Shown piece by piece: positions 8,878 through 59,899 of a stretch of DNA of 64,000 nucleotides. Each line of letters starts with the position of its first letter. The stretch's first letter is position 1. The stretch lies in assembly GCA_963674735.2 (NCBI GenBank), contig CAXXQS010000002.1:992001-1056000 (forward strand), in the 5' to 3' direction. The DNA comes from Myxococcota bacterium (GTDB taxonomy: Bacteria > Myxococcota_A > SURF-8). A program made the position numbers and the translations under genes. The notes beneath the pieces are model-generated. The model had not been told where the DNA came from, ran no database searches, and saw only the letters and a list, made by a program, of their open reading frames with translations.

Positions 8878-8906
8878 GGGAACCTTTCCGTTACAATGAT
8901 GATATC

Positions 8907-28455: not shown

Positions 28456-28806
28456 CGCCTGAACCTCCGAACATGGCAAATTTCTTAATACAACCGAGAT
28501 ATTATGGAGGAATGTCCCACTCCTGTAAAGACTTTTTCGCAAGCAGCCGAATCTGGGTGTCAGTATTTAAAGTGTTTTCACTTTCATTCGTGTTAATCGG
28601 GGGAAGCCTATCTCCAGTCAACTTAAACAGTCGTTTAAGATAATCTTTCATAAAAATGATTCCATTGTCAGTTTTTATTTGCTTTCGACCGCTCAATCTG
28701 TACACTTTTCACGCTCGGTGACCACGGCTCATCGCCGATCCGGTCCCACCCGTTTGCGCCGAGCCTTCTTGATTTGGTGCGGATGTTTCAGTCGAGGTTA
28801 AATTCC

Positions 28807-30765: not shown

Positions 30766-32140
30766 GAAGTACAAAGGTTACCGCAATACCGCCAAGGCCA
30801 AAATGATCGAGTGCGGCGTGCAGGTTTGGAGCGATGTGGAAGCCCACACGGAACGGGGTGTCTTCAAGGGGATCATCCTCCCGCGCTCTGAAACCGCCGA
30901 CGATCGACACATCGTGCTCAAGCTGATCAGCGGTTACAACGTCGGACTCGCGGCGGAAAAAATCGTCTCGATGAAGCAGGTGGGCTATCGCGCCGCCAAC
31001 TACCACATCCCCGAAAAGGAATTCCCCTTCGATCCGGCCAAACGCAAGGTGCGCCTGTTCGGGACCGGCGGCACCATCGCCTCGCGCCTCGATTATCGCA
31101 CCGGCGCGGTCATCCCGGCTTTCACGCCGGGTGAACTATATGGCTCCGTACCGGAGCTGGCCGATATCTGCAATCTGGAAACGGAAAAGCTGTTCGGCGT
31201 TTTCTCCGAAAACATGGGGCCCGAACAGTACATCACGACCGCTCTGCAATGCGGGGAGGCCATCCGCGCGGGCTATGACGGCATCGTCATCGGCCACGGC
31301 ACCGATACCATGCACCACACCGCCGCCGTCTTGTCGTTCATGGTGCAGAATTCACCGATTCCCATTGTAATGGTGGGCAGCCAGCGCAGTTCCGACCGGC
31401 CCAGTTCCGACGCCGCCCGCAATCTCATCCACGCAGTCACCGCCGCCGCCCACGGCGACCTGGCCGAGGTGATGGTCTGCATGTTCGGCCCGACCTCCGA
31501 CGAATACAACCTACTGCATCGCGGCACGCGCGTCCGCAAAATGCATTCGTCCTACCGGTCGACCTTCCGCACCTTGTCCGATGTCCCGCTGGGTAAAGTG
31601 GAAAACAAGAAAATCGAAACCTTCACCGACGACTACAAGCGCCGCCGCAGCGACCGAGACGTGGACATCAAGGCTGTTTTCGACGACCGCGTAGCGATCG
31701 TGTATTACTACCCCAACATGAAACCCGACATCATCACCTCGCTGGTCGACAACGGCTACAAAGGAATCGTGATCGCCGGAACCGGCTTGGGGCACGTCAA
31801 CAAACCGCTGTACCCGGTGCTGCGAGACGCCTGCGAAAAAGGCGTGCACATTTACATGACGGTGCAGACACTTTATGGTTTCGTTCAGATGTACGTATAC
31901 GAAACCGGTCGCGAACTGATGCAACTGGGCGTCGTCCCGGCGGCCAACATGCTGCCGGAAGTGGCCTACGTCAAGTTGGGCTGGGTACTCGGCCAAACTC
32001 ATGATCGCGATGAAGTACAGCGCCTGATGCTGACTCCCATCGCCCACGAAATCACCGAGCGCGAACCGCACAACGGTTATCTCATCCTCCAGGGCGGTTT
32101 GCCCGAGGTGGAAGAGTTCTTGTCCAAAATCCGAAAATAG
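30749..32140 (+). CDS. gatD: Glu-tRNA(Gln) amidotransferase subunit D (archaeal type)
   Basis: GatD N-domain (IVLKLISGYNVG) plus asparaginase domain GTGGTIASRLDYRTGAV, HGTDTM, GSQRSSDRPSSD, RKMHSS, GTGLGHV, MLPEVAYVKLGW; 17-nt overlap with gatE. Confidence 0.92.
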   Translation: MTTNAEKYKGYRNTAKAKMIECGVQVWSDVEAHTERGVFKGIILPRSETADDRHIVLKLISGYNVGLAAEKIVSMKQVGYRAANYHIPEKEFPFDPAKRKVRLFGTGGTIASRLDYRTGAVIPAFTPGELYGSVPELADICNLETEKLFGVFSENMGPEQYITTALQCGEAIRAGYDGIVIGHGTDTMHHTAAVLSFMVQNSPIPIVMVGSQRSSDRPSSDAARNLIHAVTAAAHGDLAEVMVCMFGPTSDEYNLLHRGTRVRKMHSSYRSTFRTLSDVPLGKVENKKIETFTDDYKRRRSDRDVDIKAVFDDRVAIVYYYPNMKPDIITSLVDNGYKGIVIAGTGLGHVNKPLYPVLRDACEKGVHIYMTVQTLYGFVQMYVYETGRELMQLGVVPAANMLPEVAYVKLGWVLGQTHDRDEVQRLMLTPIAHEITEREPHNGYLILQGGLPEVEEFLSKIRK

Positions 32141-35489: not shown

Positions 35490-35531
35490 ATAATGAATGG
35501 AGCCCACGTGCGCTCCGCGATGGAGGTTTGC

Positions 35532-36554
35532 ATGCAACGATACGTCCCGGTTCGCCTGGCGCTCTGGGTTTGTTTGGTCGCGCTATGCCTGGGCGGCTGC
35601 AAGCGCACTTATCCGGAAGACGAACCTTTCGACTTCGATTTCTACCCCGACGGCGACAGCGAACAGGTCGTCGAACCCGATGGCGACGGCCTCATCCCCG
35701 GCGATGGCGACGGCCCCGACATCGGCCCGGTGGATCAACGCCCGCAAACGCGGGATGCCGCCGTCGAACCCTTCGGACCCGGCGAGTGGAATCCCCCGAC
35801 GCCGCATCTCACCCCGGACGGCGAGATGACCATCGCTCCCTTCGAAACACTGAATTTTCATGCCGATGCCTCACTCCCGGCCGAAGGCGACATTACCGAT
35901 TATTACTGGCATCTGGTTCAATCCCCCGCTCTGACATTGTCCACACTCGATTTGTCGCCTAATGGCGTCGCCGCCGCTCTGACCCCCGATTTCGCCGGAC
36001 AGTACACTCTGCGCCTCAACGTACGCGACGAAGGCGGCGTGGGTTTCGCTCCGGCGCGCGCCGACATCTGGGTTCGTCCGCAAACGGCTCTATACGTGGA
36101 ATTGGGTTGGACAACCCCCGGCGATGACGATGAAGCCGACGACTGCACCGGTTGCGGAGCCGATCTCGACCTTCACATGGTTCCGCTCGGCGGTCTATGG
36201 GGCGGGCCGCTCGACTGTACCTGGTTGAGTCCGCAGGTGGATTGGAGCGGCGAACATGACCCGCAACAGGCCTGCGTTCTCGCCCGTGAAGATTTCACCG
36301 GACGCGGCCCGGAGATCGCACAGGTGGAGGATCCCAGCAATCTGCCCGCCATCGCCATCGGCGCGCAGGTTCTCGACGATGCCGGATTCGGTCCGAGTAC
36401 GGCGCGATTGGTGATCTGGCTGGACGGCGAAGCGGTGTTTACGGGAGAGAGCGACCCGCTGGACATCGGACAATTCTGGACCGCCGCCACTCTGCGGTCG
36501 GACGGAACGGTATTGCCCGTCAACCGCGTCAGTGATGGTTACCCGAACAATTGA
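35532..36554 (+). CDS. Lipoprotein with DGD linker, PKD-like domain and DLDLH-motif domain
   Basis: GGAGG RBS; lipobox LGG-C; YYWHL..PDFAGQYTLRL; LGW..DLDLH..GPE. Confidence 0.7.
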   Translation: MQRYVPVRLALWVCLVALCLGGCKRTYPEDEPFDFDFYPDGDSEQVVEPDGDGLIPGDGDGPDIGPVDQRPQTRDAAVEPFGPGEWNPPTPHLTPDGEMTIAPFETLNFHADASLPAEGDITDYYWHLVQSPALTLSTLDLSPNGVAAALTPDFAGQYTLRLNVRDEGGVGFAPARADIWVRPQTALYVELGWTTPGDDDEADDCTGCGADLDLHMVPLGGLWGGPLDCTWLSPQVDWSGEHDPQQACVLAREDFTGRGPEIAQVEDPSNLPAIAIGAQVLDDAGFGPSTARLVIWLDGEAVFTGESDPLDIGQFWTAATLRSDGTVLPVNRVSDGYPNN

Positions 36555-37560
36555 TCCCGCATTGGTGCGGAGGAGCCTGCTTCCGTTGCGGCCGCCACTC
36601 GTCGTAGGCGGATGAGGTCCGCGCGCAACCGACGGTGCAGTAGGTACAGCAGGTTTTGATGGTATCGAACTGCTCCTTGAGGTCGTCGATGGTGTACTCC
36701 ATCAACGGCTTGGCGAAATCGTCGCGTTGCTGGCTGCACCAATGCACCACCCCGAACTCGTCCAAGTACAGATAACGGGCACCGGAACGACACTTGAACG
36801 GCGCGGGCTTGCCATCGAGCAAACGCTCGCGGTAGCCGTGCGATTCTTTGAAACGACGACCGATACGGCGCTTGGCTTCCTCATAGGCCGCCAACTCTTC
36901 CGCACTCAGCTTCACCTGACCGTCTTCGCCGTGGATCAAGAGCACCCGCGGCACGAACTTCATCTCACGTGCAAAGTCTACCATCTCCAACACTTCATGT
37001 GGAGGTGCAGCCCCCACCACCGCCGACAGGGTCACGGTGAAGCGCGCCCGTTCCGAAATCATGCGCAGCTTGTCGCGCAATGGATCGAGCACCTTGACGG
37101 TCATGGCGTTGGTTTTCACGCCGTCGATCGAAACCTGCAAGTCGGTCAACCCGGCTTCGTTCAACTGCTCCACGCGCCGTTCGGTGAACAGATAAGCGTT
37201 CGAAATCATCATTCGGGCCGGAAAACCCAACTCGGTGGCATAGCGTACCGCCTCCACCAGATCGGGATTCAAAAGCGGTTCGCCCCCGGTGAACTCCACC
37301 GCCAGAGCCCCCAGTTCGTGGATTTTATCGAGCTGGCGTTTGAGTGTATCAAGCGGCAGAGGATTGGATACCTTATCGAATTCGTTGCAGTAACCGCAAG
37401 CCAGGTTGCAGCGGCGCGTGACCACCATTTGCACCAGAAACGGGCTGTAACCGAATTGATCTTTCAGGCCCACCGGCAAGCGCGGACGATCGAGGATGAA
37501 GTGCCGGGCGATGCGCACGGCATTGGATAATTTTTCCTGAAGCAAACGACGTGTCGCCAT
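36529..37560 (-). CDS. Radical SAM enzyme with C-terminal SPASM/twitch-like Cys motif
   Basis: CNLACGYC, TGGEPLL, QVSIDG; CRSG..G.VHWC..CCTYCTVGC. Confidence 0.9.
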   Translation of the reverse strand: MATRRLLQEKLSNAVRIARHFILDRPRLPVGLKDQFGYSPFLVQMVVTRRCNLACGYCNEFDKVSNPLPLDTLKRQLDKIHELGALAVEFTGGEPLLNPDLVEAVRYATELGFPARMMISNAYLFTERRVEQLNEAGLTDLQVSIDGVKTNAMTVKVLDPLRDKLRMISERARFTVTLSAVVGAAPPHEVLEMVDFAREMKFVPRVLLIHGEDGQVKLSAEELAAYEEAKRRIGRRFKESHGYRERLLDGKPAPFKCRSGARYLYLDEFGVVHWCSQQRDDFAKPLMEYTIDDLKEQFDTIKTCCTYCTVGCARTSSAYDEWRPQRKQAPPHQCGINCSGNHH

Positions 37561-37563
37561 GGA

Positions 37564-40292
37564 TCAGCCGTCCTTTCGTGAGCGCCGCGCATCCATGAAA
37601 ATCAGCAACGCGGGGAAAGAAAGCACCGAAGACACCAGACAACATCCGATGCCCACAACTGCCAGAAGACCGATGGAGTTGAGCCCGGCATGATTGGCCA
37701 GATTCATACCGGCGAAGCCGATCATGGTGGTCAAGGACGCCAGCGTCACCGCCCAGCCGGAAGTGGCTAAAACCTTGGGCACCGAGCCCGGTCCCTCTTC
37801 CAGATAACGGTGGTAGATATGCACCCCGTTATCGACCCCGATTCCAATGAGCGAGGGCAATACCACCATATTGAAAAACGATAGCTTGATACCGTCGTAA
37901 GCCATCACTCCGCACAACATCAGCACACCGCCCAGAAGCGGCGTCATCACGAACAGGGTATGCCGCAACGAGCGAAAATCGATCAACAACAGCAAAAACA
38001 CCACCAGGATGCTGGCGCCGATGGCGATCTTGCCGTCCTCTTCCATCGCCCACATGGTGTCGGCGAAAACGAAAGCCTCACCGGCCGGGTAGAAGGTCTT
38101 CCCGCCGATTTCCAGCTTCGAGGCCTCTTCCGTAAAACGAATGGAGGCAATGCCGTTCCAGGTATCGACGTTGGTGTAGATCATGTTCAAAATGCCCACC
38201 CGGTGCTGGGTCCAGCGGATCAACTTGGCCAAGACGGGATCATCGGACTTGGGCGTATCGGGTATCTCGACATTCGCCACCCATTTCGCCACCCGCTCTT
38301 TCGCCTCGGCGGAAACCTGCGGCCAGCGGCGGGTCAGTTCACTGACGAAACGATCGTCGAGGCTTGTGCCCTTCCACCCTTTCATGGTGTCTTTCAGGAA
38401 GGGAATCAGCTCTTCCTTGCCCGCGCGCACGATGGAGAACGTGCGAATCACCTTTTCGGGCAATTCGAACAAGGCGGGCGGCGGGGTGCGCGTCATCGTG
38501 CGCAGTTGCTCGGCGTCGGCCCGGTTTTGCTCATCGCCGATCATATCGAGGTTCTCGTCGGTAAGCAGCTTCTCGATCTCGCCGATGATCATCCGTTTGC
38601 GCGACAGATCGTCCGGGAGGAAGGTGAACAATGAACGAATGATCTTGAGGGTGGTGCGCGGCGTGGTATCGCGCATCTCCATCACATGATCATGCACTTG
38701 CTTGGTCTCCGCCAGGTCTTCGGCGATCACCATCACCGGCTGCAACGACAGAGGCATGGCCTTGCCGTATTTTTTGCTCATGTTGAGCACCGGGTTGTTG
38801 CGGGTGCGCAGCTTGGCGAAGTTGTATTCGAAATCGATGGGCGGCACACAACAGTCGCCGGGTTCCGGCGCGCAACGCCGCGTATCGGAATACCAGGGGT
38901 TGTCGGTGTGACATTGGAAACTGCGATAGATCGTGTAGCCGCCGAACAGCATGATCAAGGCGGTCAACAGCACCACCCAGCCGGGTTTGGGAATGCCGAT
39001 CGGCTTGACATCATGGTTGGTAGCGTTTTTACGGACGATGGGCCAGATCCGCTCCGAAATCACCAGCATGGCCGGATGAACGACGAACGAGGCGATCACG
39101 CAGAAGACCACCCCGGTTCCAGCCAGAAAACCGAACTGTGAAAACCCGCGAAAATCAGCCAGTGTAAGGGAGAAAAAGGCGGCGGCCGTGGTTACCGAAC
39201 CGGTAAAGATGGCACGGCCGGTTTTCGTTTCGGCCTCCAGCAGACTGCCCGGAATGTCGACACCCTTATGGCGGTTTTCCATGTAGCGATTCAGGAAATG
39301 GATGCAGAAATCGATACCCAGCCGAGCAACACCGCGAAGATGAACGCGGTGATCATGTTCAGATAACCATACTTGAACTGCGCCACAGCCAGCGCCCAGG
39401 TGATGCCCATGATCAAGGGCACCATCACGGTCACGATGGCCCGCAGGCGACGGAAGTAGAGGGTGATCAGCAGAGTCAGCAAGATCATCGTCGTGCCCAT
39501 GGAGCGCACCAGATCATTGATGATACTCTGTTTTTCGACCATTTTATTACGGTAGCTGCCCCCCAGGTCGAAGGTGGTGTCGCCGAATTTTCCCGCCGCA
39601 ATCACTTCGTTGCCCACGATACGCACGTGGTGGAGCAAGCGTTGGTTGAAGCCCAGATCGGAGGACGACTGGGTGGGTTTGACCAGCACACCCAGAACGC
39701 TCTCGTCGTCGGAAATGAAGTACTCCTTAAAGTCGCCGGTACGGTATTTCTGATGCAGACTCTTCTGCCGCCAGACCTCGTCGTCGTCCTCTTCCTCTGC
39801 CTCGTCGTCGTCGAGATCGACGTACAGCGGGTTGGCTTTGAGCTTTTCCTCACGAACGCGGTCGTCCAGCTTCTCCCATACTTCCATCAACTCGTCGCGC
39901 GATAGGAAATAGAGGGCGCGGTCTTTGAAGTACTGGATATCGTTTCGTAAATCGACCTTCTGAACGAAGATCTCCTTCCCTTCTTTCAAGCGCTGTTCTT
40001 TGTGAACCAGCAAGGCTTCTTTGAGCGCATGACCGAAGGCTTTCATCTGCGCGGGCTCGGAGCCCTCTACCATGACCATCAGATAACCGGCCGCCCCGAT
40101 TTCCTTCATGGTTTTTTCGAGGTTCGTCACCGAGAAGGTGTGCTCGGGCAACAAATCGCCGATGTTGGTTTTAATCTTGAGTTTGGAGGCGTAATACCCC
40201 GCCCCCACAGTCAGAAGCAGCGCCAAAACGAGAATCCAAACCGGGAACCGGTAAACGAGCGTCGCCAGGAACTTCAAAAACCGTTCAATCAT
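37564..40292 (-). pseudogene. MMPL/RND lipid exporter (HpnN-like), split by one missing base
   Basis: Adding one base near 39321 restores VLLGLGIDFCIHFLNRY; second half has GIGVDNGVH and ASLTTMIGF; about 909 aa when joined. Confidence 0.85.
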
Positions 40293-40344
40293 GCGGTCCT
40301 CCCGCTAAACCTGCGTCCGTAATCGACACTCACGACCTGCCCCC

Positions 40345-41670
40345 TCAGTCGCCCACGGGTTGAGCAAGCCGGACTTTCAAGCGCCAGATGCGCACCGACA
40401 AGGTCAAAACGCCGTAGGCGGTCATCATCCAGTAGCCGGGGTAATAGGCACCGGCCAACAAGAAGGGGATCAAGGTCCAGATATAGGTGTTGCGACGCCC
40501 CGAGATCACCCGGAAACGACGCTCGAAGTCGCCCGCATCATCGAGCTGGATGTTACGACGCTTTTTCATCACCAGACCCACGTAGATGTCGGCCATATTA
40601 CAGAAGAACAGGATTCCGAACAGAATATACGGCATTTGCCCGTATCCCTGATTCGACAGGTAGTAGGCCATAGCCCAATACCAGGTGTTTTCGTAAATTT
40701 TATCGAGTACCTCTTCGATGCGCCCGAATTCCGACGTCATCATTTTTACGCGCGCCTGCTTGCCGTCCAGGCCGTCGAGAATGCCCACCGCCAGCGCACC
40801 GGCCATCGCCGGAACCAACGCACCCACGGCAAAGGCGTAAGCCGCCGCAAAGGCCACGATATTGTTGATCAACGTGAGTTGGTTGGGCGTAATCGACCAT
40901 TCGCAGATGTGATAGACGATCCATTTTTCGATGGGCCGGTGAATGTACCAGGCGGGCCAGTCGAGCACGCTTTTCTGGGCGTGATTCAACAGCTCGCGTT
41001 TGGCCGCAGGGTTGTCTCCCGGACGACTGATCGGCAGCCACAAATAGGGCACGTCCCGGCGCATATCGTAGTGATAAGTCGGCAAAGTTGCGGTATCGAC
41101 GAGCGCATCGGGGCTATCGGACACAACCGATTTCAGCAATTCAGCGAGCCAGGCGTCGCCTTTTTCGGGTTTGAGCGCACCGATGCGTCCGGCCCGCAGT
41201 CGCGCCACACCGTTGAAAATATAGGATTTACCACCCAACTCCAATTTCAAACCGCGTGCCGCATCGCCGGAAGCCGCCACACTCTCGGGTAGCAGCGCAA
41301 CCTGCTCGTCGGCGCTCTCACCGAATGAATTGGACAGCCGCTCATCGAACAGGGACGCACCGTCGAGCAACAGCCAGGGGGCGTTGTCGTTGGCCGCAAA
41401 CGTACCGTCCAGATCCAGCCGTCCATCGGCGCCCGGCCACGTCAGCCGCAGACGCATCTTGAGCGAAGCCAGCCGATCCATTTCGGCCTGCAACGCCTCA
41501 TCGCGTCCGGCCGCCACCACCAGCGCCTCCGATACCCCGGCCTTGCGCAGGATCCGCACCTGTCGCTCAAGCAAAGTGATACCGCCGATACGAATCAGCG
41601 CGCGCGGTCCCGAACCGCTTTCGGTCGGTGCCGTGGCCGCGATCAATCCACGCAAATTGCGAGTATTCAT
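40345..41670 (-). CDS. NTP-transferase-like domain fused to a CDP-alcohol phosphotransferase
   Basis: N-terminal PRAL..IGGITLLERQV..AGV; C-terminal ITPNQLT and LDGLDGKQAR. Confidence 0.85.
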   Translation of the reverse strand: MNTRNLRGLIAATAPTESGSGPRALIRIGGITLLERQVRILRKAGVSEALVVAAGRDEALQAEMDRLASLKMRLRLTWPGADGRLDLDGTFAANDNAPWLLLDGASLFDERLSNSFGESADEQVALLPESVAASGDAARGLKLELGGKSYIFNGVARLRAGRIGALKPEKGDAWLAELLKSVVSDSPDALVDTATLPTYHYDMRRDVPYLWLPISRPGDNPAAKRELLNHAQKSVLDWPAWYIHRPIEKWIVYHICEWSITPNQLTLINNIVAFAAAYAFAVGALVPAMAGALAVGILDGLDGKQARVKMMTSEFGRIEEVLDKIYENTWYWAMAYYLSNQGYGQMPYILFGILFFCNMADIYVGLVMKKRRNIQLDDAGDFERRFRVISGRRNTYIWTLIPFLLAGAYYPGYWMMTAYGVLTLSVRIWRLKVRLAQPVGD

Positions 41671-43187
41671 TCCGTTTTACCTCGAATTCCCAAACGCCCC
41701 AAGACCTTGTGCGCCACCGCGCGTTCTTCCCGCGCGGGACCGAGCGCCAGAAGCAAGGGGAAATAAACCACCAGATAAACCAACGCAAATCCCAACTCAG
41801 CCAGGGTTCCATCCAAACCGGAAACGGCTTTGGCCGCAAAAACCATCCCAAAGGCCGCCAAGGCTGAAAACACGGCCTTCAAGTGATAAACCGTGAACGG
41901 ATGCAGCTTGAACAAGACACTCACCTCGATCAGACGAGCGGCATTCATGGCCGAATAGGCGATCACGATGGCCGCCGCCGCACCCTCCATTCCGTATTGA
42001 GGAATCAACAGCACGTTCAACGTCACGTTGATCGCGATGGTGCCGATCGTGTTGGCCAGGTTCAACATCGGCCGGTCGATCAGGATAAAGAGCTCAGACA
42101 CCCCCAAAACTCCGTTGATCATCACCGACAGCGCCAAGAGTGCCAACGTGACGGTGCCGGCCGTGAAATCGGCTCCGAACAGGGCCATGAGCGGTCTGCC
42201 CGCCAGCACTACCACACCCAAAAGGGCGGCGTCAAGGATCAGGATCCAGCGAGTGACATTTTGATATTGCAGCCGCATGGCCGCCCGGTCCTTGATTTCA
42301 TGGGCGGCCGAGATCACCGGGATGAAGATGGGATCGAAGCTCTGACGCACCTTCTTTACGGTGAAGGCCGCTTCTTCGGCCATTCCGTAAACACCGACCA
42401 TGGCAGTGGGCACATAACGTCCCACCATGAACATATCGATCCGCTGTAGAAGCAGGTTCAGCATATCGTAAAACCCGATGGGTGCAGCGAATCGCAATAA
42501 ATCACCCCGCCCCGGTCGTTCGAACAAACTTCGCAGCACTTTCTTGAGCGACATCTCTTTCGAAAAGAAATAAGCCGCCAATGCCGCGCCCGCCGCCACG
42601 GAACACAGAAAAGCGATGGACAGCCCCGTGATTCCGGCGTCGAGCCAGAATAGCGGCAAGGCCAACGCCAGCATCACCAGCGGTTCAACCACCCGCTTGG
42701 TAATAACCTCGTAACGCATCACCCGCAGAGCGCGCGTGGCGAATAATAAAACAGCGGAGATCGTCCAGAACGGCATGCCCCAGGCCATCACGCGCAACGG
42801 CAGAATCAACTCGGGCTTGTCGTAAAACGCCAAAGCTGCCGGAGCGGCCAGAAGTTCGAGCAGGGCCACCATCACCGCAGAGGCAACCAGACCGATCATC
42901 AGCGCCTGAGCCACGGCGCGGTGTAACGCTTCTGTATCGCCCCGCGCGTGATGCCGCGCCGCAACGGCCAGAATGCCGCGATCAAGCCCTAAAATGCCCA
43001 GCTTCGACACCACATCCACACTGGCCCACGAAAGCAGATAAAGGCCCGTCAATTCCGCCCCGTAAAGACGGCCGAGAACAATGTAGAAGACGAAGTTCAG
43101 GCTGGAGGCCAGAACCCCGATAAAGTTCACCAAGGCCCCCCGGACGATGTCGCGCGTATCGCGACGGCTGGTTTCGTGTGCGCTCAT
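41667..43187 (-). CDS. Wzx/MOP-superfamily flippase
   Basis: About 14 hydrophobic segments; GRLYGAELTGLY, RIDMFMVG, VGVYG, NVLLIPQYGMEGAA. Confidence 0.85.
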   Translation of the reverse strand: MSAHETSRRDTRDIVRGALVNFIGVLASSLNFVFYIVLGRLYGAELTGLYLLSWASVDVVSKLGILGLDRGILAVAARHHARGDTEALHRAVAQALMIGLVASAVMVALLELLAAPAALAFYDKPELILPLRVMAWGMPFWTISAVLLFATRALRVMRYEVITKRVVEPLVMLALALPLFWLDAGITGLSIAFLCSVAAGAALAAYFFSKEMSLKKVLRSLFERPGRGDLLRFAAPIGFYDMLNLLLQRIDMFMVGRYVPTAMVGVYGMAEEAAFTVKKVRQSFDPIFIPVISAAHEIKDRAAMRLQYQNVTRWILILDAALLGVVVLAGRPLMALFGADFTAGTVTLALLALSVMINGVLGVSELFILIDRPMLNLANTIGTIAINVTLNVLLIPQYGMEGAAAAIVIAYSAMNAARLIEVSVLFKLHPFTVYHLKAVFSALAAFGMVFAAKAVSGLDGTLAELGFALVYLVVYFPLLLALGPAREERAVAHKVLGRLGIRGKTE

Positions 43188-43205
43188 TGAATGTTCGGCA
43201 GTCGC

Positions 43206-44279
43206 CTACGGATTGATAAGCTGCATGACATAGTCGCGGTTTTCCTTGATCACGATCGTCTCCGCTTCACCGCCTTCCGTTACGGGCGGTAAAGTCAGCG
43301 TGAACTGAAAATCGCCGTTGAAGGTATAGTCGATCGGTTCCGATACCCGCGCCACCACGAAGCTTTCCAGTTTGGAGAGATCGTCCAATACATCTTTCCG
43401 ACGTAACAGCTTTTTCTGCCGGAGTGTCACCTCAAGCTTGCAGCCGTCTTTCTCGGATGAAATCGTCACCATTTTCGGTAACTTGTACTTGTTTTTCGAT
43501 TTGCTGTCCTGCACCGCCCCTTTGAAAGTCACCTTCGGATTAAGAGTCGCAAACAGGGTGCGCTCTTTCTGCCCCAGCCAGATCCATCCGCGATCGAGAC
43601 CTTGCGGACCCGCCTGGTCGGTGGCGAAACCGGTGAAAAGCGCTGTGGTATCGCCGCTGAAGAACTTGAATTTCAACCAGCGGCGCGCCAGCTTGTGTGG
43701 GGGAATGGTCGTCCAGCTGTGGTCCACCAACCCGGTCCCCACGATCGGCAACGACTTGCCTTTGATGGTCATCACGCCTTTGAATGCCGCGCGCGGGGCC
43801 AACAAGACCATGTCGTACACGCCGTTTTTCTCGTACAGATGTCCGCCCGCCGCCGGATTGAAACCGGGGGTGAGAGACGTAATGGTCAATTCGGTTGACA
43901 AATCGCCATCACCCGCCTTGATATAAAGCGCATCGCCGCGCTTTTCGATGACCGACCCCTCGAAATCGAGCGCAAAGCGATCTTTGGCGAAGCGCCAATC
44001 GTCACCCACTTTGATCTTGGTGGCCAAACGTTTCATCCTGGGAGTGGTGACTTCCACCTTGACGGCGCCCTTTTTATCGCCAAGCCCGATATTGGACACC
44101 ACAAACTGCACGTGCACGTAAAAACCGTTTTCCGCCCAGACGGAACTCGACCATTGCTCGGTGTAAAATTCGTCGGAGGCAAGGTGGGGCTGATAGTCGC
44201 CCAACGGCAACGCGAAAGCGGGCGTGGCCAACAACCACAAACCCGTCAAGACTGTCAGAAAATGTTTCAACAGGGTCAT
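43206..44279 (-). CDS. Secreted AttH/CrtC/Svf1-like (lipocalin-like fold) protein
   Basis: AAAGGAG RBS; signal peptide ending AFA; YTEQW, APRA..KG, GLVDHSW..PHKLARRW.KF. Confidence 0.6.
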   Translation of the reverse strand: MTLLKHFLTVLTGLWLLATPAFALPLGDYQPHLASDEFYTEQWSSSVWAENGFYVHVQFVVSNIGLGDKKGAVKVEVTTPRMKRLATKIKVGDDWRFAKDRFALDFEGSVIEKRGDALYIKAGDGDLSTELTITSLTPGFNPAAGGHLYEKNGVYDMVLLAPRAAFKGVMTIKGKSLPIVGTGLVDHSWTTIPPHKLARRWLKFKFFSGDTTALFTGFATDQAGPQGLDRGWIWLGQKERTLFATLNPKVTFKGAVQDSKSKNKYKLPKMVTISSEKDGCKLEVTLRQKKLLRRKDVLDDLSKLESFVVARVSEPIDYTFNGDFQFTLTLPPVTEGGEAETIVIKENRDYVMQLINP

Positions 44280-44924
44280 GAAATCTCCTTTCCGGTCGAA
44301 AGCCTCCCGCACTTTCAACCGAAGCAAGCGCGGGATTCTACCGCAAATTGCGCGGCAATGCCAGAAAACGGACGATTAGGTCACGATTACAAGAACTTCG
44401 GGAGTCGGATGCTCGATGCTCACTCACAGGATGACAGTCGCGTCGCATAGCAGCAATCGATTCGTTCAATCCCGAATTCATCCCATTCTCCGATTCTCAC
44501 CGGAAATAGAATCGCCATCCGCAGCCCGAAGCTCAGCTACATCATGAGTGTTTTCAAAGAGTTAACAGATTCCTTTCTAAGGCTATCGTTTTATCCGTTG
44601 CCGGGCATTGCCACCCTCATTAAACAGGTAACACGAACAGCCCCGCCATTCGTTACCGGCACACAACATCCGCACGACAATAAAGCTCGCATTTCGGATG
44701 GCCAGTCGAACGAGATGCCAACCGATATCGAATCGGACGGCACTCATGAAAAAAACGATCGGATACGGCTTGTCGAAAGGAAGAAGAGTAGGGTTTTTTA
44801 TGAAATTGTGGTATATATGAGCTTCTGCGTTTCGGGAACCCTCTCATGACGGGGCCGTCTGTTCGGGGTTCCTTGTTCGATTCCGACAATCAGGACCCCT
44901 GCGAAAGGGCGAAAGGAGAGCACC

Positions 44925-45275
44925 ATGAGCACAACCATGCTGGCTTACTGCGGCTTGGCCTGCAACCGCTGCCCCGCTTATCTGGCGACTCAAAACAACG
45001 ACGACGCCCTGCGCAAACAAACGGCGATCGAGTGGTCCAAGATGTACAATGCCGAGATTCGTCCGGAACACATCAACTGCGACGGCTGCAAAAGCGGCTC
45101 CGAACGGCTCTTTTTCCATTGTTCCCAATGTGGAATCCGCAGCTGCACAACGGAGAAAGCCTACCAAACCTGCGCCGACTGTGGCGACTACCCCTGCGAC
45201 CAACTCTCTTTCGTTATCAACGCCGTGCCTGAAGCCCGTGCAGCCTTGGAAATGTTACGCGAGTCCATTAAGTAA
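44925..45275 (+). CDS. DUF3795 family Cys-rich protein
   Basis: YCGLACNRCPAY..CDGCK..CSQCGIRSC..CADCGDYPC. Confidence 0.85.
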   Translation: MSTTMLAYCGLACNRCPAYLATQNNDDALRKQTAIEWSKMYNAEIRPEHINCDGCKSGSERLFFHCSQCGIRSCTTEKAYQTCADCGDYPCDQLSFVINAVPEARAALEMLRESIK

Positions 45276-45386
45276 GCCAAGGCTCTTTTGAGTGGATGGT
45301 TTTAGGAAACTACGCCTGCTAAATCAAGCCCTTTTGCGCCTTAACCAACCGGAAATAATAGATTATTTCGCCTCTACATTTCAAGC

Positions 45387-45415
45387 TTGCCCAAGGCTGA
45401 AGTGCATGCTAGGAT
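45387..45415 (+). promoter_or_regulatory. Sigma70-type promoter for thyX-pur
   Basis: TTGCCC-17nt-TAGGAT with an extended TG. Confidence 0.55.
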
Positions 45416-45499
45416 GCACGCGCCCGACGGGGTAACCGATAAAAAAGGGGGCTGAAAACGCCGCCGATTTGCCGCCCGTCCGATACGAAAGGAGCGCCC

Positions 45500-46303
45500 A
45501 TGGGTCATGTCACCACCCCGGAAGCCGAAGCCCTGCTCGACAAACCGATTGCCGTTTTAGATCACGGATTTGTCCGCATGGTGGACTACCTGGGATCCGA
45601 TGCTCGCATCGTCCAATCGGCGCGTGTGTCTTACGGCGAAGGGACGAAAACCGTCCGCGAAGACAAAGGTCTGATCAACTACCTGCTCAGACACCAGCAC
45701 ATGTCCCCCTTCGAGCAAGTGGTGTTCACCTTTCATCTTAAAATGCCCATTTTCGTGGCCCGCCAACTGGTGCGCCACCGCACGGCCCGTTTGAATGAAA
45801 TCTCGGGACGTTACAGCAAGATGCTCAACGAGTTCTACCTGCCCACCGAAGAACGGGTGGCTTTTCAAAGCAACAGTAACCGGCAGGGCTCCAGCGACAA
45901 GGATGTCCCGGACGAACTGCGCAAGAAGGTGATCGAAACGCTCACCGGCGTCTACGACAGCGCCTATCAAGGCTACGAAGAAATGATCGAGGCCGACATC
46001 AGCCGCGAATTGGCGCGGGCGGCCTTGCCTTTGTCCCTTTACACGGAGATGTACTGGCAGATCGACCTACGCAACCTGATGCACTTCATCGCCTTGCGCG
46101 CCGACAGCCACGCCCAGCATGAAATTCAGGTTTACGCCAACGCCATGGCTACATGCGTGCAAGCGGTCACGCCATATACCTGGGAAGCGTTCGATCGCCA
46201 CGTCCTCGGCTCCAAAAAGCTCAACCGCGAGCAGCTGGCCGAACTGGTGGAGGCGCTTGGCGAAAGTCATCCCGACCTGTTACGCAAACTGAACCTGATT
46301 TGA
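45500..46303 (+). CDS. thyX: FAD-dependent thymidylate synthase
   Basis: ARVSY, HMSPFEQ, RQLVRHRTARLNEISGRY, LRADSHAQHEI. Confidence 0.96.
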   Translation: MGHVTTPEAEALLDKPIAVLDHGFVRMVDYLGSDARIVQSARVSYGEGTKTVREDKGLINYLLRHQHMSPFEQVVFTFHLKMPIFVARQLVRHRTARLNEISGRYSKMLNEFYLPTEERVAFQSNSNRQGSSDKDVPDELRKKVIETLTGVYDSAYQGYEEMIEADISRELARAALPLSLYTEMYWQIDLRNLMHFIALRADSHAQHEIQVYANAMATCVQAVTPYTWEAFDRHVLGSKKLNREQLAELVEALGESHPDLLRKLNLI

Positions 46304-46357
46304 CCTCACGGCCGCCTTGCGACAGGCGGCCGTTTGCTTTTCGGAGGATTCACTTAC

Positions 46358-49351
46358 ATGGCAGCGCGAATCGAAGTCATCCATAAGCCCGCAGTGGTCG
46401 ACGCCGCCGGGGCATCCATCCAACGCCGCCTCAAACGCGATCTCGGCCTGACGGTCGACGATTTGCGCGTGGTGCAGGTGTACACCATCGACAAAGAGCT
46501 GACGTCCGAACAACTCGACCAACTGCGCAAGCGGCTCTTCACCGATCCGGTGACCCAGGACTCGGTCATCAACCAGTCCGTTTCAACCGCCTTCGACTGG
46601 GCCATTGAAATCGGCTACCTGCCGGGCGTCACCGACAATGCGGGCCGCACCAGCCGCGACGGCATCCAGGATCTATTGGGCTTGCGTTTCGATGAAGGTG
46701 AAGCGGTCTATACTTCCGAACTGCTTCTGATCAAAGGCGCGCTCAAAGCCGCCGAAGCCGAGCGCATCGCCGGTCTGCTGTCGAACCCGCTCATCCATCG
46801 CGTAGCCGTGAAAGACAAAGCCACCTTCGATAAAACGGGCGACATGGACATGACGCCGCCCAAAGTCACGCTGGCCCCCAATCCGCGCGTGGACGACGTC
46901 GACCTGGAATTGCCCGAAGCGGATCTCAAGATTTTGTCATCCCAAGGCATTCTCGACCATGTCGAGGAGGGGCGGGAAATCCGCCGCGGTCCGCTCGCAC
47001 TGGACATGGACCAGATGGAGGTCATCCGCGCCTACTTTAAAAAAGAAGGCCGCAAGCCCACCGACGTCGAGCTGGAATCGCTGGCGCAGACCTGGTCGGA
47101 ACACTGCAAACACACCATCTTCGCGGCGCAAGTCGACGATGTGACAAGCTTGTATAAAACCTACATCCAGCGCGCCACTCGCGAAATCCGCGAAGCCCTG
47201 GGAAACGACGACTGGTGCGTGTCGGTTTTCTCCGACAACTCGGGCGTCATCAAGTTCGTCGACGGCCACAACATCTGCTACAAAGTCGAAACGCACAACA
47301 GCCCCTCGGCGCTGGATCCTTACGGCGGGGCCATCACCGGCATCGTGGGCGTCAATCGCGACCCGCTGGGCACCGGCATCGGCGCGCGGCTGGTCACCAA
47401 CATGTACGGCTATTGTTTCGGCAACCCTTACTACGACAAGCCGCTGCCCTATCGCCGACCCGGTAAACAGGATCCGATCCTGCATCCGCGCGTCATTTTC
47501 GAAGGCGTGCGCCTGGGCGTCGAACACGGCGGCAATAAGTCAGGCATCCCCACCAGTTGGGGTTTCCTCTCCTTCGACGACCGCTACATGGGTAAGCCGC
47601 TGGTATTCGTGGGAACCTTGGGCCTTATGCCCGAAACGATCAACGGCCAGCCGAGCGAGCAGAAGCAGGCCTTGCCGGGAGACGTCATCATCATGGCGGG
47701 CGGACGTGTGGGAGCCGACGGCATCCACGGCGCCACCTTCTCATCCGAAAGCCTGCATGCCGGATCGCCCACCGGCGCGGTGCAGATCGGCGACCCCATC
47801 ACCCAGAAAAAACTTGGCGACGCCCAACTCGAAGCGCGCGACCTGGGATTGTACCGCTCCATTACCGACAACGGCGCGGGCGGACTGAGCTGCTCGGTGG
47901 GTGAAATGGCGCTGGAATCGGGCGGCTGCGAAGTGGCGCTCGATAAAATCCCGATCAAATACGCGGGCCTGGCTCCCAACGAAATCTGGATCAGCGAGTC
48001 GCAGGAACGCATGACCTACGCCGTTCAGCCGGAAAACGTCGACGCGTTCATGGACCTCATGCGTCGCCGCGACGTCGAGGCCACCATCATCGGCCATTTC
48101 ACCGACAGCGGGCGCTGCGTGGCCACCTTCGAAGGCCGGGCGGTGATGGACGTCGAACTCGATTTCCTGCACGACGGTTTACCTAAAAAACTCTTGAATT
48201 CCAGCTATACACCGCCCAAACACCCCGAACCGATCTTGCCGGGCTCCGAAACGCTGGCTACCGACTGGATCGCGTTGATGGGGTCGCTCAATCTGTGCTC
48301 CAAGGAATACGTCGTGCGCCAGTACGACCACGAAGTGCAGGGCGGCTCGACCGTCAAACCGCTGGTCGGTCGTCAACTCGACGTCCATTCCGATTGCGCC
48401 GTGGTGCGACCGCTTCTGAATAATGCGGCAGGCGTGGGCTTGTCGTCGGCGCTGTATCCAAGCTACGGCGACATCGATCCCTACGCCATGGCCGCCTGCG
48501 CCATCGATACGGCATTGCGCAATCAACTCGCGGCGGGAGCCGATCCCGAACGCGTGGCGCTACTCGACAATTTCTGCTGGTGCAGTTCCAACGAGCCCGA
48601 GCGCCTGGGCCAACTCAAACTCACCGCGCAGGCCTGTTACGAAACGGCCGTGGCCTACCGCACCCCGTTCATCTCGGGCAAAGACAGTATGTTCAACGAC
48701 TTCAAAGGCTTCGACGACAACGACCAACCCGTCAAAATATCGGTACCCCCGACCCTGCTGGTGTCGTCCGTAGGCGTTTTGCCCAAAGCGCACTTCGCCC
48801 TCACCCTCGACGCCAAGGCCGCCGGCGACCTGGTTTATGTCGTCGGCACCACCCGCGACGAACTGGGCGGCTCGGAATACTTCCGCCTGCTGGGCGAACG
48901 AGAAAGCGGTCAGCCCTATCTGGGCAACCGGGTACCGACCCTCGATCCCGAAGCGAACATACCGGTTTATAAAGCCTTTTACCGCTGCATACGCGAACGC
49001 CTGCTGGCTTCGGCGGCCAGCGTCCATCTGGGCGGCTTGGCGGCGGCGGCGGCCAAAACCGCCATGGCGGGCGAACTGGGCCTGACACTCGATCTCGATG
49101 CCCTGCCCGCCGACGGCCTGGACGATCCGCTACGACTCCTGTTTTCGGAGTCCCAGGGACGTTTTCTGGTAACCATGCCGAAAGCCAGCACGGGTCGTTT
49201 CGAAGCGTTATTCGCCAACCTGCCCTGCGCTCGCGTGGGTCTGGTAACCGAAGCGCCCGTCATCTCGGTCACGCAGGGCTCGGGTCCGGCGCTGGCGACC
49301 ATCGAGCTGGCGGATCTCAAAACAGCTTATAAGCAAACCCTCGATTGGTGA
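46358..49351 (+). CDS. purL: FGAM synthase PurL with fused N-terminal PurS-like domains
   Basis: QTWSEHCKH, KVETHNSPS, DGIHGATFSS, DNGAGGL, SESQERM, QYDHEV, ISGKDS; N-terminal LPGVTDNAG..NPLI. Confidence 0.93.
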   Translation: MAARIEVIHKPAVVDAAGASIQRRLKRDLGLTVDDLRVVQVYTIDKELTSEQLDQLRKRLFTDPVTQDSVINQSVSTAFDWAIEIGYLPGVTDNAGRTSRDGIQDLLGLRFDEGEAVYTSELLLIKGALKAAEAERIAGLLSNPLIHRVAVKDKATFDKTGDMDMTPPKVTLAPNPRVDDVDLELPEADLKILSSQGILDHVEEGREIRRGPLALDMDQMEVIRAYFKKEGRKPTDVELESLAQTWSEHCKHTIFAAQVDDVTSLYKTYIQRATREIREALGNDDWCVSVFSDNSGVIKFVDGHNICYKVETHNSPSALDPYGGAITGIVGVNRDPLGTGIGARLVTNMYGYCFGNPYYDKPLPYRRPGKQDPILHPRVIFEGVRLGVEHGGNKSGIPTSWGFLSFDDRYMGKPLVFVGTLGLMPETINGQPSEQKQALPGDVIIMAGGRVGADGIHGATFSSESLHAGSPTGAVQIGDPITQKKLGDAQLEARDLGLYRSITDNGAGGLSCSVGEMALESGGCEVALDKIPIKYAGLAPNEIWISESQERMTYAVQPENVDAFMDLMRRRDVEATIIGHFTDSGRCVATFEGRAVMDVELDFLHDGLPKKLLNSSYTPPKHPEPILPGSETLATDWIALMGSLNLCSKEYVVRQYDHEVQGGSTVKPLVGRQLDVHSDCAVVRPLLNNAAGVGLSSALYPSYGDIDPYAMAACAIDTALRNQLAAGADPERVALLDNFCWCSSNEPERLGQLKLTAQACYETAVAYRTPFISGKDSMFNDFKGFDDNDQPVKISVPPTLLVSSVGVLPKAHFALTLDAKAAGDLVYVVGTTRDELGGSEYFRLLGERESGQPYLGNRVPTLDPEANIPVYKAFYRCIRERLLASAASVHLGGLAAAAAKTAMAGELGLTLDLDALPADGLDDPLRLLFSESQGRFLVTMPKASTGRFEALFANLPCARVGLVTEAPVISVTQGSGPALATIELADLKTAYKQTLDW

Positions 49352-59035: not shown

Positions 59036-59063
59036 TTGACATTCTCATTCACTGCGCTACGAT
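59036..59063 (+). promoter_or_regulatory. Sigma70-type promoter
   Basis: TTGACA-16nt-TACGAT. Confidence 0.55.
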
Positions 59064-59095
59064 ACTCGCATGGCGAACCACAAGCGAGGTCGGAC

Positions 59096-59899
59096 ATGAA
59101 TCCGCAAGCCCGAGTCATCTCACTGCTGACGGATTTCGGGACTCAGATGGGGTATGTGGGTCAGATGAAAGGAGTGATCCTGTCGATCAATCCCGAAGCG
59201 CATCTGGTCGACCTGTCCCACGATGTTCCGGCACAGAGTATCGCCACGGCGGCGCTGGTTTTGGAACAAAGCACACCGTTTTTCCCTACCGGCTCCATTC
59301 ATCTGGCGGTTACGGATCCCGGAGTGGGCACCGACCGTCCGGCCGTCGTGGTTGAAACGGAAAAAGCGTTGTTCGTCGGTCCCGACAACGGCCTCTTCGG
59401 TTTTCTGGCCAAGTCGCAACAGGTGCGATCCATTCACCGCATCGTCAACGAACGCTATTTTCTGGACCAACTCTCCAATACCTTTCATGGACGCGACATC
59501 TTCGCTCCCATCGCCGCCTACCTCTCCCTGGGCTATCCGCCCGACGAGTTCGGCCCCCTCGACGACAGCCTGTGCATGCTATCCGGAGACGGATTGCGCA
59601 AAACCGGCAACGAAGTCGAAGGGGATATTCTCGCCGTGGATGTCTTCGGGAATCTGATCACCAGCCTGCCCGCCGATGCGGTGGACCATTACCTGTTCGA
59701 GCACGCCGACCGCGACGTCTATGCCTGGTGCCACGACCAGCCGGTCCCCATCCGTTTCACTTACGCCGATGTCCCGGAGGGGGATCTCTTGGCTTATATC
59801 GGGTCGGGGGGGCGCCTGGAAATCGCGGTCAACCGCGGCAATGCCGCCACAAAACTGAACGCAGGCATCGGCACGCCCGTCAAATTGATCACACTGTAG
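59096..59899 (+). CDS. SAM hydroxide adenosyltransferase (DUF62; chlorinase/fluorinase family)
   Basis: LLTDFG, DLSH, DPGVGT.R, GPDNG, TFHGRDIFAP, DVFGNLIT, LEIAVNRG. Confidence 0.93.
   Translation: MNPQARVISLLTDFGTQMGYVGQMKGVILSINPEAHLVDLSHDVPAQSIATAALVLEQSTPFFPTGSIHLAVTDPGVGTDRPAVVVETEKALFVGPDNGLFGFLAKSQQVRSIHRIVNERYFLDQLSNTFHGRDIFAPIAAYLSLGYPPDEFGPLDDSLCMLSGDGLRKTGNEVEGDILAVDVFGNLITSLPADAVDHYLFEHADRDVYAWCHDQPVPIRFTYADVPEGDLLAYIGSGGRLEIAVNRGNAATKLNAGIGTPVKLITL

Follow-up and report, generated by a model that had tools for sequence, protein, structure and literature searches.

Gene Content and Layout of the Operon

We analyzed a 64-kb stretch of DNA from a Myxococcota bacterium (64,000 nucleotides, positions 992,001 to 1,056,000 of contig CAXXQS010000002.1 in assembly GCA_963674735.2; hereafter, the window), the minus strand of which carries five gene families in a single operon (Table 1): a secreted lipocalin-like protein, a putative lipid flippase, a cytidylyltransferase-like domain fused to a CDP-alcohol phosphotransferase (hereafter, the fusion enzyme), an MMPL/RND pump, and a radical S-adenosylmethionine (SAM) enzyme, rSAM_A. 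A preliminary description of this DNA had placed five co-directional genes here with intergenic gaps of 18, -4, 52, and 3 nt, and the open reading frame (ORF) listing together with Pfam and NCBIfam matches agrees with that arrangement, in which the start of the fusion gene overlaps the stop of the upstream flippase gene by 4 nt. Its domain identities held for Svf1_C, Polysacc_synt, CDP-OH_P_transf, MMPL, and Radical_SAM, with NTP_transf_3 falling below threshold, but not for SPASM, which has no Pfam match in rSAM_A. The pump, previously described as one gene, is split by a one-base frame break. The lipocalin gene is listed as an ORF from TTG 44327, but ATG 44279 is the better start because an AAGGAG sits 6 nt ahead of it and because a protein begun there has a typical signal peptide. 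For all five proteins, scores against NCBIfam equivalog models are far under the cut-offs.

Table 1. Genes and sequence features of the operon.
Feature	Position	Strand	Basis or remark
Shine-Dalgarno-like AAGGAG before the first gene	44285..44290	-	Read from sequence
Secreted AttH/Svf1/CrtC-like tandem lipocalin, 357 aa	43206..44279	-	ATG at 44279; ORF list gives 43206-44327
MOP-superfamily (Wzx/PST-type) polytopic membrane protein, putative lipid flippase, 506 aa	41667..43187	-	Pfam
Fusion of cytidylyltransferase-like domain and CDP-alcohol phosphotransferase membrane domain, 441 aa	40345..41670	-	Pfam, NCBIfam
MMPL/RND (HAE3, HpnN/BstA-like) transporter, N-terminal third, 333 aa	39291..40292	-	NCBIfam, alignment to L009 homologue
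One-base frame break in MMPL gene	39283..39330	-	Sequence and translations
MMPL/RND transporter, C-terminal two thirds, sterol-sensing-like transmembrane bundle, 572 aa	37564..39282	-	Pfam, NCBIfam
Radical SAM enzyme rSAM_A, 343 aa	36529..37560	-	Pfam, alignment

The Fusion Enzyme and Its Archaeal Relatives

The fusion enzyme consists of a cytidylyltransferase-like domain (approximately residues 1-230) and a CDP-alcohol phosphotransferase membrane domain (approximately residues 250-441). CDP-OH_P_transf (PF01066) is matched at 35.6 bits against a Pfam cut-off of 22, and NTP_transf_3 only weakly (23.9 bits, under the cut-off of 27). The best NCBIfam match is the bifunctional IPCT/DIPPS model NF041135, although its 71.2 bits are far under the equivalog cut-off of 580. 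A profile of the fusion family aligns to the IPCT/DIPPS structure of Archaeoglobus fulgidus (PDB 4MND) across both domains (positions 3-415 against 41-444, E = 4.5e-21), followed by AF2299 (4O6M) and then by PI/PIP synthases. Like the fusion enzyme, both archaeal proteins place a cytosolic nucleotidyltransferase-fold domain before a six-helix CDP-alcohol phosphotransferase with a DxxDGxxAR...D motif.

In the phosphotransferase domain, the reference motif D1xxD2GxxAR(x7-9)G(x2-3)D3xxxD4 reads D299GxxD302GxxAR..G316xxE319xxxD323 in the window protein, and D299, D302, A306, R307, G316, and D323 are invariant in an alignment with 22 relatives. The family has 78 rows, of which 73 carry Glu at the third acidic position (Glu319 in the window protein), 3 carry Asp, and 2 are unmatched there. 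The domain thus carries the motif with Glu for Asp3, a conservative deviation, and is predicted to be active. In the first domain, alignment and profile comparison indicate that the position of the 4MND P-loop, GLGTR, is not conserved in the family. The window protein has a GSGPR (residues 19-23) five residues downstream of that position, opposite GGVPK of 4MND; GxGxR at the position expected from 4MND (residues 9-12) appears only in two Hadarchaeota rows, L029:1356-2621 and L039:267-1592, whose short contigs hold no separate IPCT-like gene. These Hadarchaeota members probably remain truly bifunctional, while the bacterial members have lost the motif. Unlike the archaeal situation, an active IPCT-like enzyme is separately encoded in most bacterial fusion loci. 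The simplest reading of these sequences is that an archaeal-type bifunctional enzyme became a bacterial phosphotransferase with a pseudo-cytidylyltransferase domain, to which a separate enzyme would supply CDP-inositol. We also considered whether the operon makes the soluble osmolyte di-myo-inositol phosphate, as the closest relative of solved structure does, and rejected this on account of the P-loop loss and of a context of flippase, pump, and secreted lipocalin that points to lipid flipping and export.

Maximum-likelihood analysis (quick search, LG+G4) of 78 fusion copies places the window protein in a seven-row Myxococcota clade with L001-L006 (SH-aLRT 98). The motif at the domain junction, QK[GS]xLDWPA, and the catalytic residues are invariant in all clades, and therefore similar chemistry across the clades can be argued, although not proven.

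Recurrence of the Gene Cluster in Other Genomes

The alignment of the 22 relatives fetched 80 loci from contigs of a one-genome-per-species collection, in which neighboring families were counted by tblastn with representatives of each family (E <= 1e-8, coverage >= 40%; Table 2). Many of these loci are short contigs, which makes absences soft, and the set leaves out the locus of the nearest relative, which has 61-71% identity and comes from a Myxococcota chromosome of 5.98 Mb.

Table 2. Gene families near the fusion gene among the 80 loci.
Family	Loci
IPCT-like nucleotidyltransferase	46/80
Short second CDP-alcohol phosphotransferase	44/80
MIPS	33/80
Wzx-like	20/80
rSAM_A (orthologues of the window enzyme)	19/80
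rSAM_C	15/80
Wzi	15/80
Alpha-oxoamine synthase (Spt-like)	12/80
MMPL	6/80
rSAM_B (SPASM-type)	5/80
Svf1-like	5/80

In every locus with an rSAM_A orthologue, that gene lies no more than 1 kb from the fusion gene; these loci belong to Myxococcota, Verrucomicrobiota, and Gammaproteobacteria, and the orthologues are 38-58% identical to the window protein. An Svf1-like profile, from which distant rows were left out, matched just 6 of 2894 six-frame ORFs, namely those of the window, L002, L005, L006, L027, and L032. Three of these loci show the following gene orders. In L005 (Myxococcales) it runs short CDP-alcohol phosphotransferase, fusion, rSAM_A, Svf1-like, and Wzx-like. L027, from a gammaproteobacterial metagenome-assembled genome (MAG), contains all five Pfam families of the window behind a gene resembling serine palmitoyltransferase (Spt), in the order Spt-like, Svf1-like, MMPL, fusion, Wzx-like, rSAM_B, OlsC/LpxO-like acyl hydroxylase, and a second fusion gene, with rSAM_A on the opposite strand. 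L032 (Arenicellales) carries on one strand an epimerase/reductase-like gene followed by Spt-like, Svf1-like, MMPL, two fusion genes, rSAM_B, and rSAM_A, and a fatty-acid desaturase further along. Because the same families recur together in other genomes, their grouping is more than chance. The preliminary description had proposed that the operon builds, flips, and exports a lipid; this idea fits everything that could be tested here, and a lack of co-occurring homologues, which would have refuted it, is not what we see, as the homologues do co-occur elsewhere.

Two further observations concern genes beside the relatives. Immediately next to the fusion gene, loci of several phyla repeatedly carry an ORF of 408-490 aa that has no match in Pfam (L005:15166-16485, L007:5839-7290, L008:11356-12582, L009:11708-12985, L028:11664-13136, and L061:11306-12715), and the window has no counterpart. 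A dual-specificity PTP-like phosphatase of the phytase type (PTPlike_phytase, E = 2e-7; L005:4466-5215) lies 4.8 kb upstream of the Myxococcales cluster and could act on a lipid or inositol phosphate.

A Probable Inositol Phosphate Head Group

An inositol-phosphate synthase gene (MIPS) and/or an IPCT-like gene is present in 53 of the 80 loci, and in 38 of the 49 that span at least 15 kb. In 28 loci, the gap from the fusion gene to a following MIPS gene is at most 220 bp, and each of nine stand-alone NTP-transferases tested from beside the fusion gene has the IPCT half of NF041135 as its best NCBIfam match. With the alignment of IPCT/DIPPS over both domains of the fusion enzyme, this frequency of MIPS and IPCT-like neighbors suggests that the head group is probably inositol phosphate.

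The link is most regular in the Alphaproteobacteria, mostly Sphingomonadales, in which a fixed cassette consists of a short CDP-alcohol phosphotransferase gene on the opposite strand, then fusion, MIPS, and IPCT-like genes, often followed by Wzi (L010-L013, L016-L022, L031, L034, L040, L045, L047, L051, L059, L065, L073, and others). This cassette is a candidate locus for the unexplained inositol-type sphingolipid of Novosphingobium that is described in Heaver et al. (2022; PMC9246714).

Ceramide or Glycerolipid as the Probable Anchor

The preliminary description had left hopanoid, ceramide, and ether lipid open as the lipid that receives the head group. Among these, ceramide is the best-supported anchor, as judged from gene context, because an Spt-like gene heads the same operon in L027 and L032, ahead of the Svf1-like, MMPL, fusion, and radical SAM genes; hopanoid has found no support. 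Serine palmitoyltransferase is the best NCBIfam match of both Spt-like genes, and for that of L032 its score of 522 bits exceeds the 421 of the next family, although it is under the cut-off of 640. Ten Verrucomicrobiota loci contain an alpha-oxoamine synthase together with an SDR protein for which 3-ketodihydrosphingosine (KDS) reductase ranks second or third, and 30 loci are alphaproteobacterial, mostly from Sphingomonadales. The Sphingomonadales are sphingolipid producers, and yeast Svf1 binds ceramide. Heaver et al. (2022; PMC9246714) note ceramide phosphoinositol for Myxococcus xanthus, and report for Novosphingobium acidiphilum an inositol-sphingolipid-like lipid, yet neither of the known Bacteroides clusters. 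In M. xanthus, moreover, an MmpL gene lies immediately downstream of spt and is proposed as an alternative sphingolipid exporter, according to a 2026 preprint (10.64898/2026.04.12.717747).

A serious rival, though one we consider somewhat unlikely, is that the same enzymology serves a glycerolipid anchor (diacylglycerol or alkyl/ether glycerol), such that a phosphatidylinositol-like or other polyol-phosphate glycerolipid is made and exported. Glycerolipids are the substrates of most CDP-alcohol phosphotransferases characterized so far, the fusion enzyme has PIP and AIP synthases as its next-best sequence relatives, and neither the window nor its seven-row clade has a linked sphingolipid gene. 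The window also encodes a PlsC-type acyltransferase with an epimerase-like gene (1377-3643) and a glycerophosphodiesterase (55429-56481), all of them far from the operon, and CDP-inositol and diacylglycerol are the substrates proposed for the Bacteroides vulgatus-type cluster by Heaver et al. (2022; PMC9246714). Against a glycerolipid stand the Spt-like gene at the head of the operon in L027 and L032, the enrichment of the fusion family in sphingolipid-producing orders, and the ceramide binding of Svf1, and we retain ceramide as the preferred anchor.

The operon had been said to lack a glycosyltransferase, a squalene cyclase, and a serine palmitoyltransferase, and this holds among the Pfam-scanned ORFs of the whole window. 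The sole class I/II aminotransferase of the window (7705-8970) was considered as a possible Spt and ruled out; it is an LL-diaminopimelate aminotransferase adjoining dapA and dapB.

The Radical SAM Enzyme

rSAM_A matches Radical_SAM (PF04055) at 64.3 bits against a cut-off of 29.5, and the cysteines of its CxxxCxxC motif (C51, C55, and C58) are invariant in the family alignment. Five further cysteines are invariant in the C-terminus (C257, C275, C304, C308, and C312). SPASM (PF13186) has no Pfam match there at E <= 0.01, and the pattern of seven cysteines that would bind two auxiliary clusters is absent. The C-terminus thus appears to be an auxiliary-cluster domain of the SPASM/twitch type that is not recognized as SPASM, and it fits a single, twitch-like cluster because only five C-terminal cysteines are invariant. 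A separate radical SAM family of the related loci, rSAM_B, does match SPASM in Pfam.

Equivalog scores do not assign rSAM_A to a known function (MoaA, 76.7 against a cut-off of 284; Tes, 62.8 against 450). Its AlphaFold2 model (pLDDT 85.2) matches viperin, MoaA, PqqE, SkfB, and BlsE in Foldseek, all with TM scores of approximately 0.5-0.6, and the neighbors found by Foldseek and PDB sequence search also include DesII and GDGT-MAS at similarly modest scores. Viperin, the top match, was rejected as a guide to the substrate, as the neighbors are too evenly spread. The ESM Atlas returned generic "radical SAM" clusters alone, and the family, which numbers at least 2947 proteins at E <= 1e-3 among 8000 candidates scored, is named merely "radical SAM protein."

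Three distinct radical SAM families adjoin fusion genes in differing lineages, and 33 of the 78 fusion copies have a radical SAM gene of some kind no farther than 8 kb away, which suggests a general coupling of the fusion phosphotransferase with radical chemistry. The calditol synthase Cds and HpnJ, radical SAM enzymes that reshape lipid head groups, may be comparable to rSAM_A.

Putative Components for Flipping and Export

The flippase-like protein matches Polysacc_synt_3 (PF13440; 61.7 bits against 23) and Polysacc_synt (PF01943; 56.5 bits against 28.2) in Pfam, and reaches 37 bits against a cut-off of 300 with the Wzx-like NCBIfam model NF041503. It is a member of the MOP/PST superfamily, for which a function in lipid flipping is putative. 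In L001 and L005, the gene next to the fusion gene encodes a relative with 46-49% identity, and the 20 Wzx-like loci of Table 2 include more distant relatives.

Wzx/PST proteins classically flip undecaprenyl-linked repeat units, and the operon might instead serve a surface polysaccharide, with a polyol phosphate put on a polyprenyl-phosphate-linked unit, the Wzx-like protein flipping it, and the other genes acting in capsule assembly. A Wzi capsule-assembly gene comes after the cassette in 15 of the 80 loci, 13 of which are alphaproteobacterial, and inositol lipids are linked to capsule phenotypes by Heaver et al. (2022; PMC9246714). However, neither the operon nor the scanned ORFs of the rest of the window include a glycosyltransferase, Wzy, Wza, or Wzc, Wzi is absent from the window and its clade, and HpnN/BstA-type RND pumps and AttH/Svf1 lipocalins handle lipids, so that we regard a polysaccharide product as quite improbable, and a lipid as the preferred product.

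The C-terminal pump ORF matches MMPL (PF03176; 84.5 bits against a cut-off of 20.5) and Sterol-sensing (34.5 bits) in Pfam. In NCBIfam, the N-terminal ORF scores 95.7 bits with BstA and 69.4 bits with HpnN, both far under the cut-offs, and the C-terminal ORF 135.8 bits with HpnN, for which the two models TIGR03480 and NF052374 have equivalog cut-offs of 752 and 1100, respectively; neither value is reached. The N-terminal ORF ends in a stop codon and aligns to residues 15-336 of the 828-aa homologue in L009, and the downstream frame, read from 39330, aligns to the same homologue from residue 337 (LGIDF...) on. Because each ORF aligns cleanly to the homologue and the two meet at residues 336/337, the gene is split by a one-base shift inside the conserved GxGIDF motif, which is either an assembly error or a real pseudogene.

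If the frame break is real, the operon may be decaying in this genome, with export and perhaps the whole pathway non-functional here. The position of the break inside a conserved motif, with clean homologue alignment on both sides, is consistent with such decay. By contrast, the four remaining genes read through without interruption and keep their conserved catalytic residues, other stops or truncations are absent, and erroneous single-base indels are common when long contigs are assembled. We therefore consider decay doubtful.

HpnN being among the best NCBIfam matches of both pump pieces (69 and 136 bits), a further alternative is that the product is a hopanoid with a phospho head group, modified by a radical SAM enzyme like HpnH/HpnJ and exported by a pump like HpnN. 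The epimerase of L032 likewise has HpnA as its best match (155 bits, under the cut-off of 368). However, the HpnN scores are 5-10 times under the cut-off of 752, the 25 best of the 69 NCBIfam matches of rSAM_A do not include HpnH, which scores 43 against a cut-off of 225 with the L032 orthologue, and no squalene-hopene cyclase or hpn family was found among the window ORFs or the approximately 200 neighboring ORFs scanned in 21 loci. A hopanoid product is thus highly improbable, and we return to a ceramide-anchored lipid as the likeliest cargo of the pump.

In the lipocalin-like protein, the Pfam match to Svf1_C is marginal (27.6 bits against a cut-off of 25), and the N-terminus has a signal peptide without a lipobox cysteine. 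The Svf1/AttH likeness recognized in the preliminary description is borne out by the AlphaFold2 model (pLDDT 94.5, pTM 0.89), a double barrel of the AttH/CrtC/Svf1 kind, the best Foldseek match of which in the PDB is AttH NE1406 (2ICH; E = 4e-11, TM 0.56/0.61). The next matches are Fsa2, Phm7, and CghA, which are fungal decalin-forming pericyclases, followed by kievitone hydratase and 25-phosphosteroid lyase, and relatives of the lipocalin match CrtC in Pfam. An exhaustive profile search recovered 1312 representatives of the family at E <= 1e-3; a word-index search found 4 proteins alone, which reflects the sensitivity of the tool. Every ligand-defined match (that is, all but AttH) acts on a bulky hydrophobic molecule. 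By analogy, the secreted lipocalin may be a lipid carrier.

Proposed Pathway

Building on the observed gene set, domain identities, conserved motifs, folds, and recurrent gene linkage, we propose that the operon makes and exports a specialized envelope lipid. On the cytoplasmic side of the inner membrane, the fusion enzyme would use a CDP-alcohol to attach a phospho-alcohol to a membrane lipid at the lipid hydroxyl, releasing CMP, as expected of its family and motif, with an intact six-helix phosphotransferase domain carrying Glu for Asp3 and an IPCT-like domain without the P-loop. The donor would most likely be CDP-inositol or a derivative, and the acceptor most likely ceramide, by analogy with CDP-alcohol-type ceramide phosphotransferases. 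rSAM_A, with its SAM cluster and one auxiliary cluster, may then tailor either the CDP-linked head-group precursor or the finished lipid, and the Wzx/PST-like MOP protein may flip the polar lipid to the periplasmic leaflet. Finally, the HpnN/BstA-like RND pump would extract the lipid and hand it to the secreted AttH/Svf1-like double lipocalin for carriage towards the outer membrane, a step modeled on HpnN, BstA-BstB, and yeast Svf1. Taken as a whole, the composite (a phospho-cyclitol lipid, probably a sphingolipid, that is tailored, flipped, and exported) is a tentative proposal to which we give slightly less than an even chance. We place more confidence in phospholipid head-group synthesis plus export as such, and less in the specific terms inositol and ceramide as applied to the window's own clade.

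A number of observations weigh against the composite. MIPS, IPCT-like, short CDP-alcohol phosphotransferase, and Spt-like genes are all absent from the 64 kb of the window, and none of the seven rows of its Myxococcota clade has a MIPS or IPCT-like gene within 8 kb of the fusion gene, for which reason the donor alcohol in this clade is an extrapolation from other clades; so is the lipid anchor, given the lack of a linked sphingolipid gene described above. In the Verrucomicrobiota loci, the alpha-oxoamine synthase scores slightly higher with BioF (345 bits) than with Spt (318 bits), which leaves the sphingolipid link ambiguous. The Wzx-like protein of L027 is merely 18% identical to that of the window (pairwise E = 0.037). 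The structural neighbors of rSAM_A point to no substrate, and the radical-SAM-modified head group of the preliminary description is a conjecture. Some AttH/CrtC-fold proteins are enzymes (hydratases, lyases, and pericyclases) and the lipocalin need not be a carrier; because several of its matches are of this kind, we only infer that role. Lastly, the pump gene is broken in this assembly, and the export step may be defective here unless the frame break is a sequencing error.

Comparison With Known Systems

Full-text literature searches found no description of the cluster. Given this result and the equivalog scores far under cut-offs, it does not map to a characterized hopanoid or phospholipid locus, which would have refuted the preliminary description, and it is a member of no characterized pathway. 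In logic it is likest to the Caulobacter phosphosphingolipid region and to HpnN/BstA-type export, and in its component parts to archaeal IPCT/DIPPS.

The closest analogue is the CPG/CPG2 cluster of Caulobacter crescentus, CC_1152-CC_1168, as it is described in its sources (PMC11324152; 10.64898/2026.04.12.717747). There, too, a ceramide head group is made with a CDP-alcohol phosphotransferase-domain protein and two nucleotidyltransferases, in one region with a putative flippase and a dedicated inner-to-outer-membrane transport system. Unlike the operon, the Caulobacter cluster makes a phosphoglycerate head group, exports through LptC2/F2/G2 paralogues, and, in those accounts, has no radical SAM, MMPL, or lipocalin gene. 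The likeness is one of logic and gene types.

The inositol-lipid clusters of Bacteroides (BT_1522-1526, and the B. vulgatus-type cluster of NTP-transferase, CDP-alcohol phosphotransferase, and HAD genes; PMC9246714) resemble the fusion loci in bringing together MIPS, a proposed CDP-inositol NTP-transferase, and a CDP-alcohol phosphotransferase, with products that include inositol phosphoceramide. As presented in that study, however, the Bacteroides enzymes are separate proteins, the ceramide lipid is derived from PI in a step of the HAD or PAP2 type, and radical SAM, Wzx, MMPL, and lipocalin genes are absent. Against the BT1523 model, the best match reaches 34 bits, where NCBIfam sets a cut-off of 350.

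Export of hopanoids by HpnN and of sterols by BstA-BstB-BstC, like that proposed for the operon, employs an HAE3/MMPL-type RND pump with a sterol-sensing-like bundle and a periplasmic lipid-binding partner. Unlike these systems, the operon lacks linked hopanoid or sterol synthesis genes, its pump scores far under the equivalog cut-offs, and its periplasmic partner has the AttH/Svf1 tandem lipocalin fold. Yeast Svf1 and bacterial AttH (NE1406, of the CrtC-fold family) share with the window protein the tandem beta-barrel and the Svf1_C match, at 13% identity to AttH in the case of the window protein, which is secreted to the periplasm. Several members of the CrtC fold act as enzymes, not as carriers. 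Similarly, viperin, BlsE, DesII, and MoaA, which act on nucleotide-linked substrates, combine a radical SAM core with an auxiliary-cluster C-terminal domain as rSAM_A does, and viperin, MoaA, PqqE, and BlsE are its nearest solved folds; its gene also lies beside that of a lipid head-group enzyme. rSAM_A is set apart by reaching no equivalog cut-off and by TM scores of only approximately 0.5-0.6.

Other Features of the Window

Promoter and terminator consensus scans of 36000-45600 gave site counts not above those of shuffled sequence and are therefore uninformative on the operon boundaries. Across the whole window, no Rfam family reaches its gathering score, hence no recognized riboswitch lies upstream of the operon, and ARAGORN found no tRNA. 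An ORF at 35493-36554 (+), which shows a lipobox-like signal (LGGC) and a weak match to the PKD domain, is convergent with the rSAM_A gene, with a 3' overlap of 26 nt.

Elsewhere in the window, a GatE-GatD pair (28774-30765 and 30749-32140, both +), an archaeal-type Glu-tRNA(Gln) amidotransferase, scores above the NCBIfam curated cut-offs (540 against 456 and 506 against 324). GatDE is regarded as an archaeal system, and its presence here is unusual, given that the lipid-cluster proteins have their nearest relatives in Myxococcota MAGs. Three further items have no connection to the operon: a PurL fused to a PurS domain (46334-49351, +); an (R)-SAM hydrolase-like protein (59036-59899, +), whose 200 bits fall short of the cut-off of 350; and an activase of the BcrAD/BadFG type with a DUF2229 protein behind it (15890-20120, +).

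Implications

Two questions may be addressed through these genes. The first is which genes make inositol-type sphingolipids outside the Bacteroidota, as raised in Heaver et al. (2022) by the Novosphingobium lipid in the absence of known clusters and by the ceramide phosphoinositol of Myxococcus. The second is how sphingolipids are transported to the outer membrane in bacteria without duplicated Lpt genes; in the 2026 Caulobacter preprint (10.64898/2026.04.12.717747), transport is called "a mystery" and the role of MmpL in Myxococcus is a guess. For both questions, the cluster and its relatives yield specific candidate genes, and some of the relatives have been isolated in culture (Novosphingobium aquae, Polymorphobacter arshaanensis, and Thermaurantiacus tibetensis).

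At its most far-reaching, and as a joint claim we think unlikely to hold in full, the fusion family could be the missing enzyme of a third, CDP-inositol-dependent bacterial route to inositol phosphosphingolipids, in which, for clusters of the window's type, a dedicated radical SAM enzyme would remodel the cyclitol head group and Wzx-like, MMPL, and periplasmic Svf1-like proteins would form a new pathway of export to the outer membrane. The users of such a route would be Sphingomonadales, Myxococcota, Verrucomicrobiota, and some Gammaproteobacteria, with the Svf1-like carrier as the counterpart of ceramide transfer in yeast. In addition, the cluster offers three leads: a radical SAM family that is widespread, uncharacterized, and linked to an enzyme of lipid head groups; the apparent conversion, in bacteria, of the first domain of an archaeal bifunctional enzyme into a pseudo-enzyme; and a possible prokaryotic parallel to Svf1-mediated ceramide transfer.

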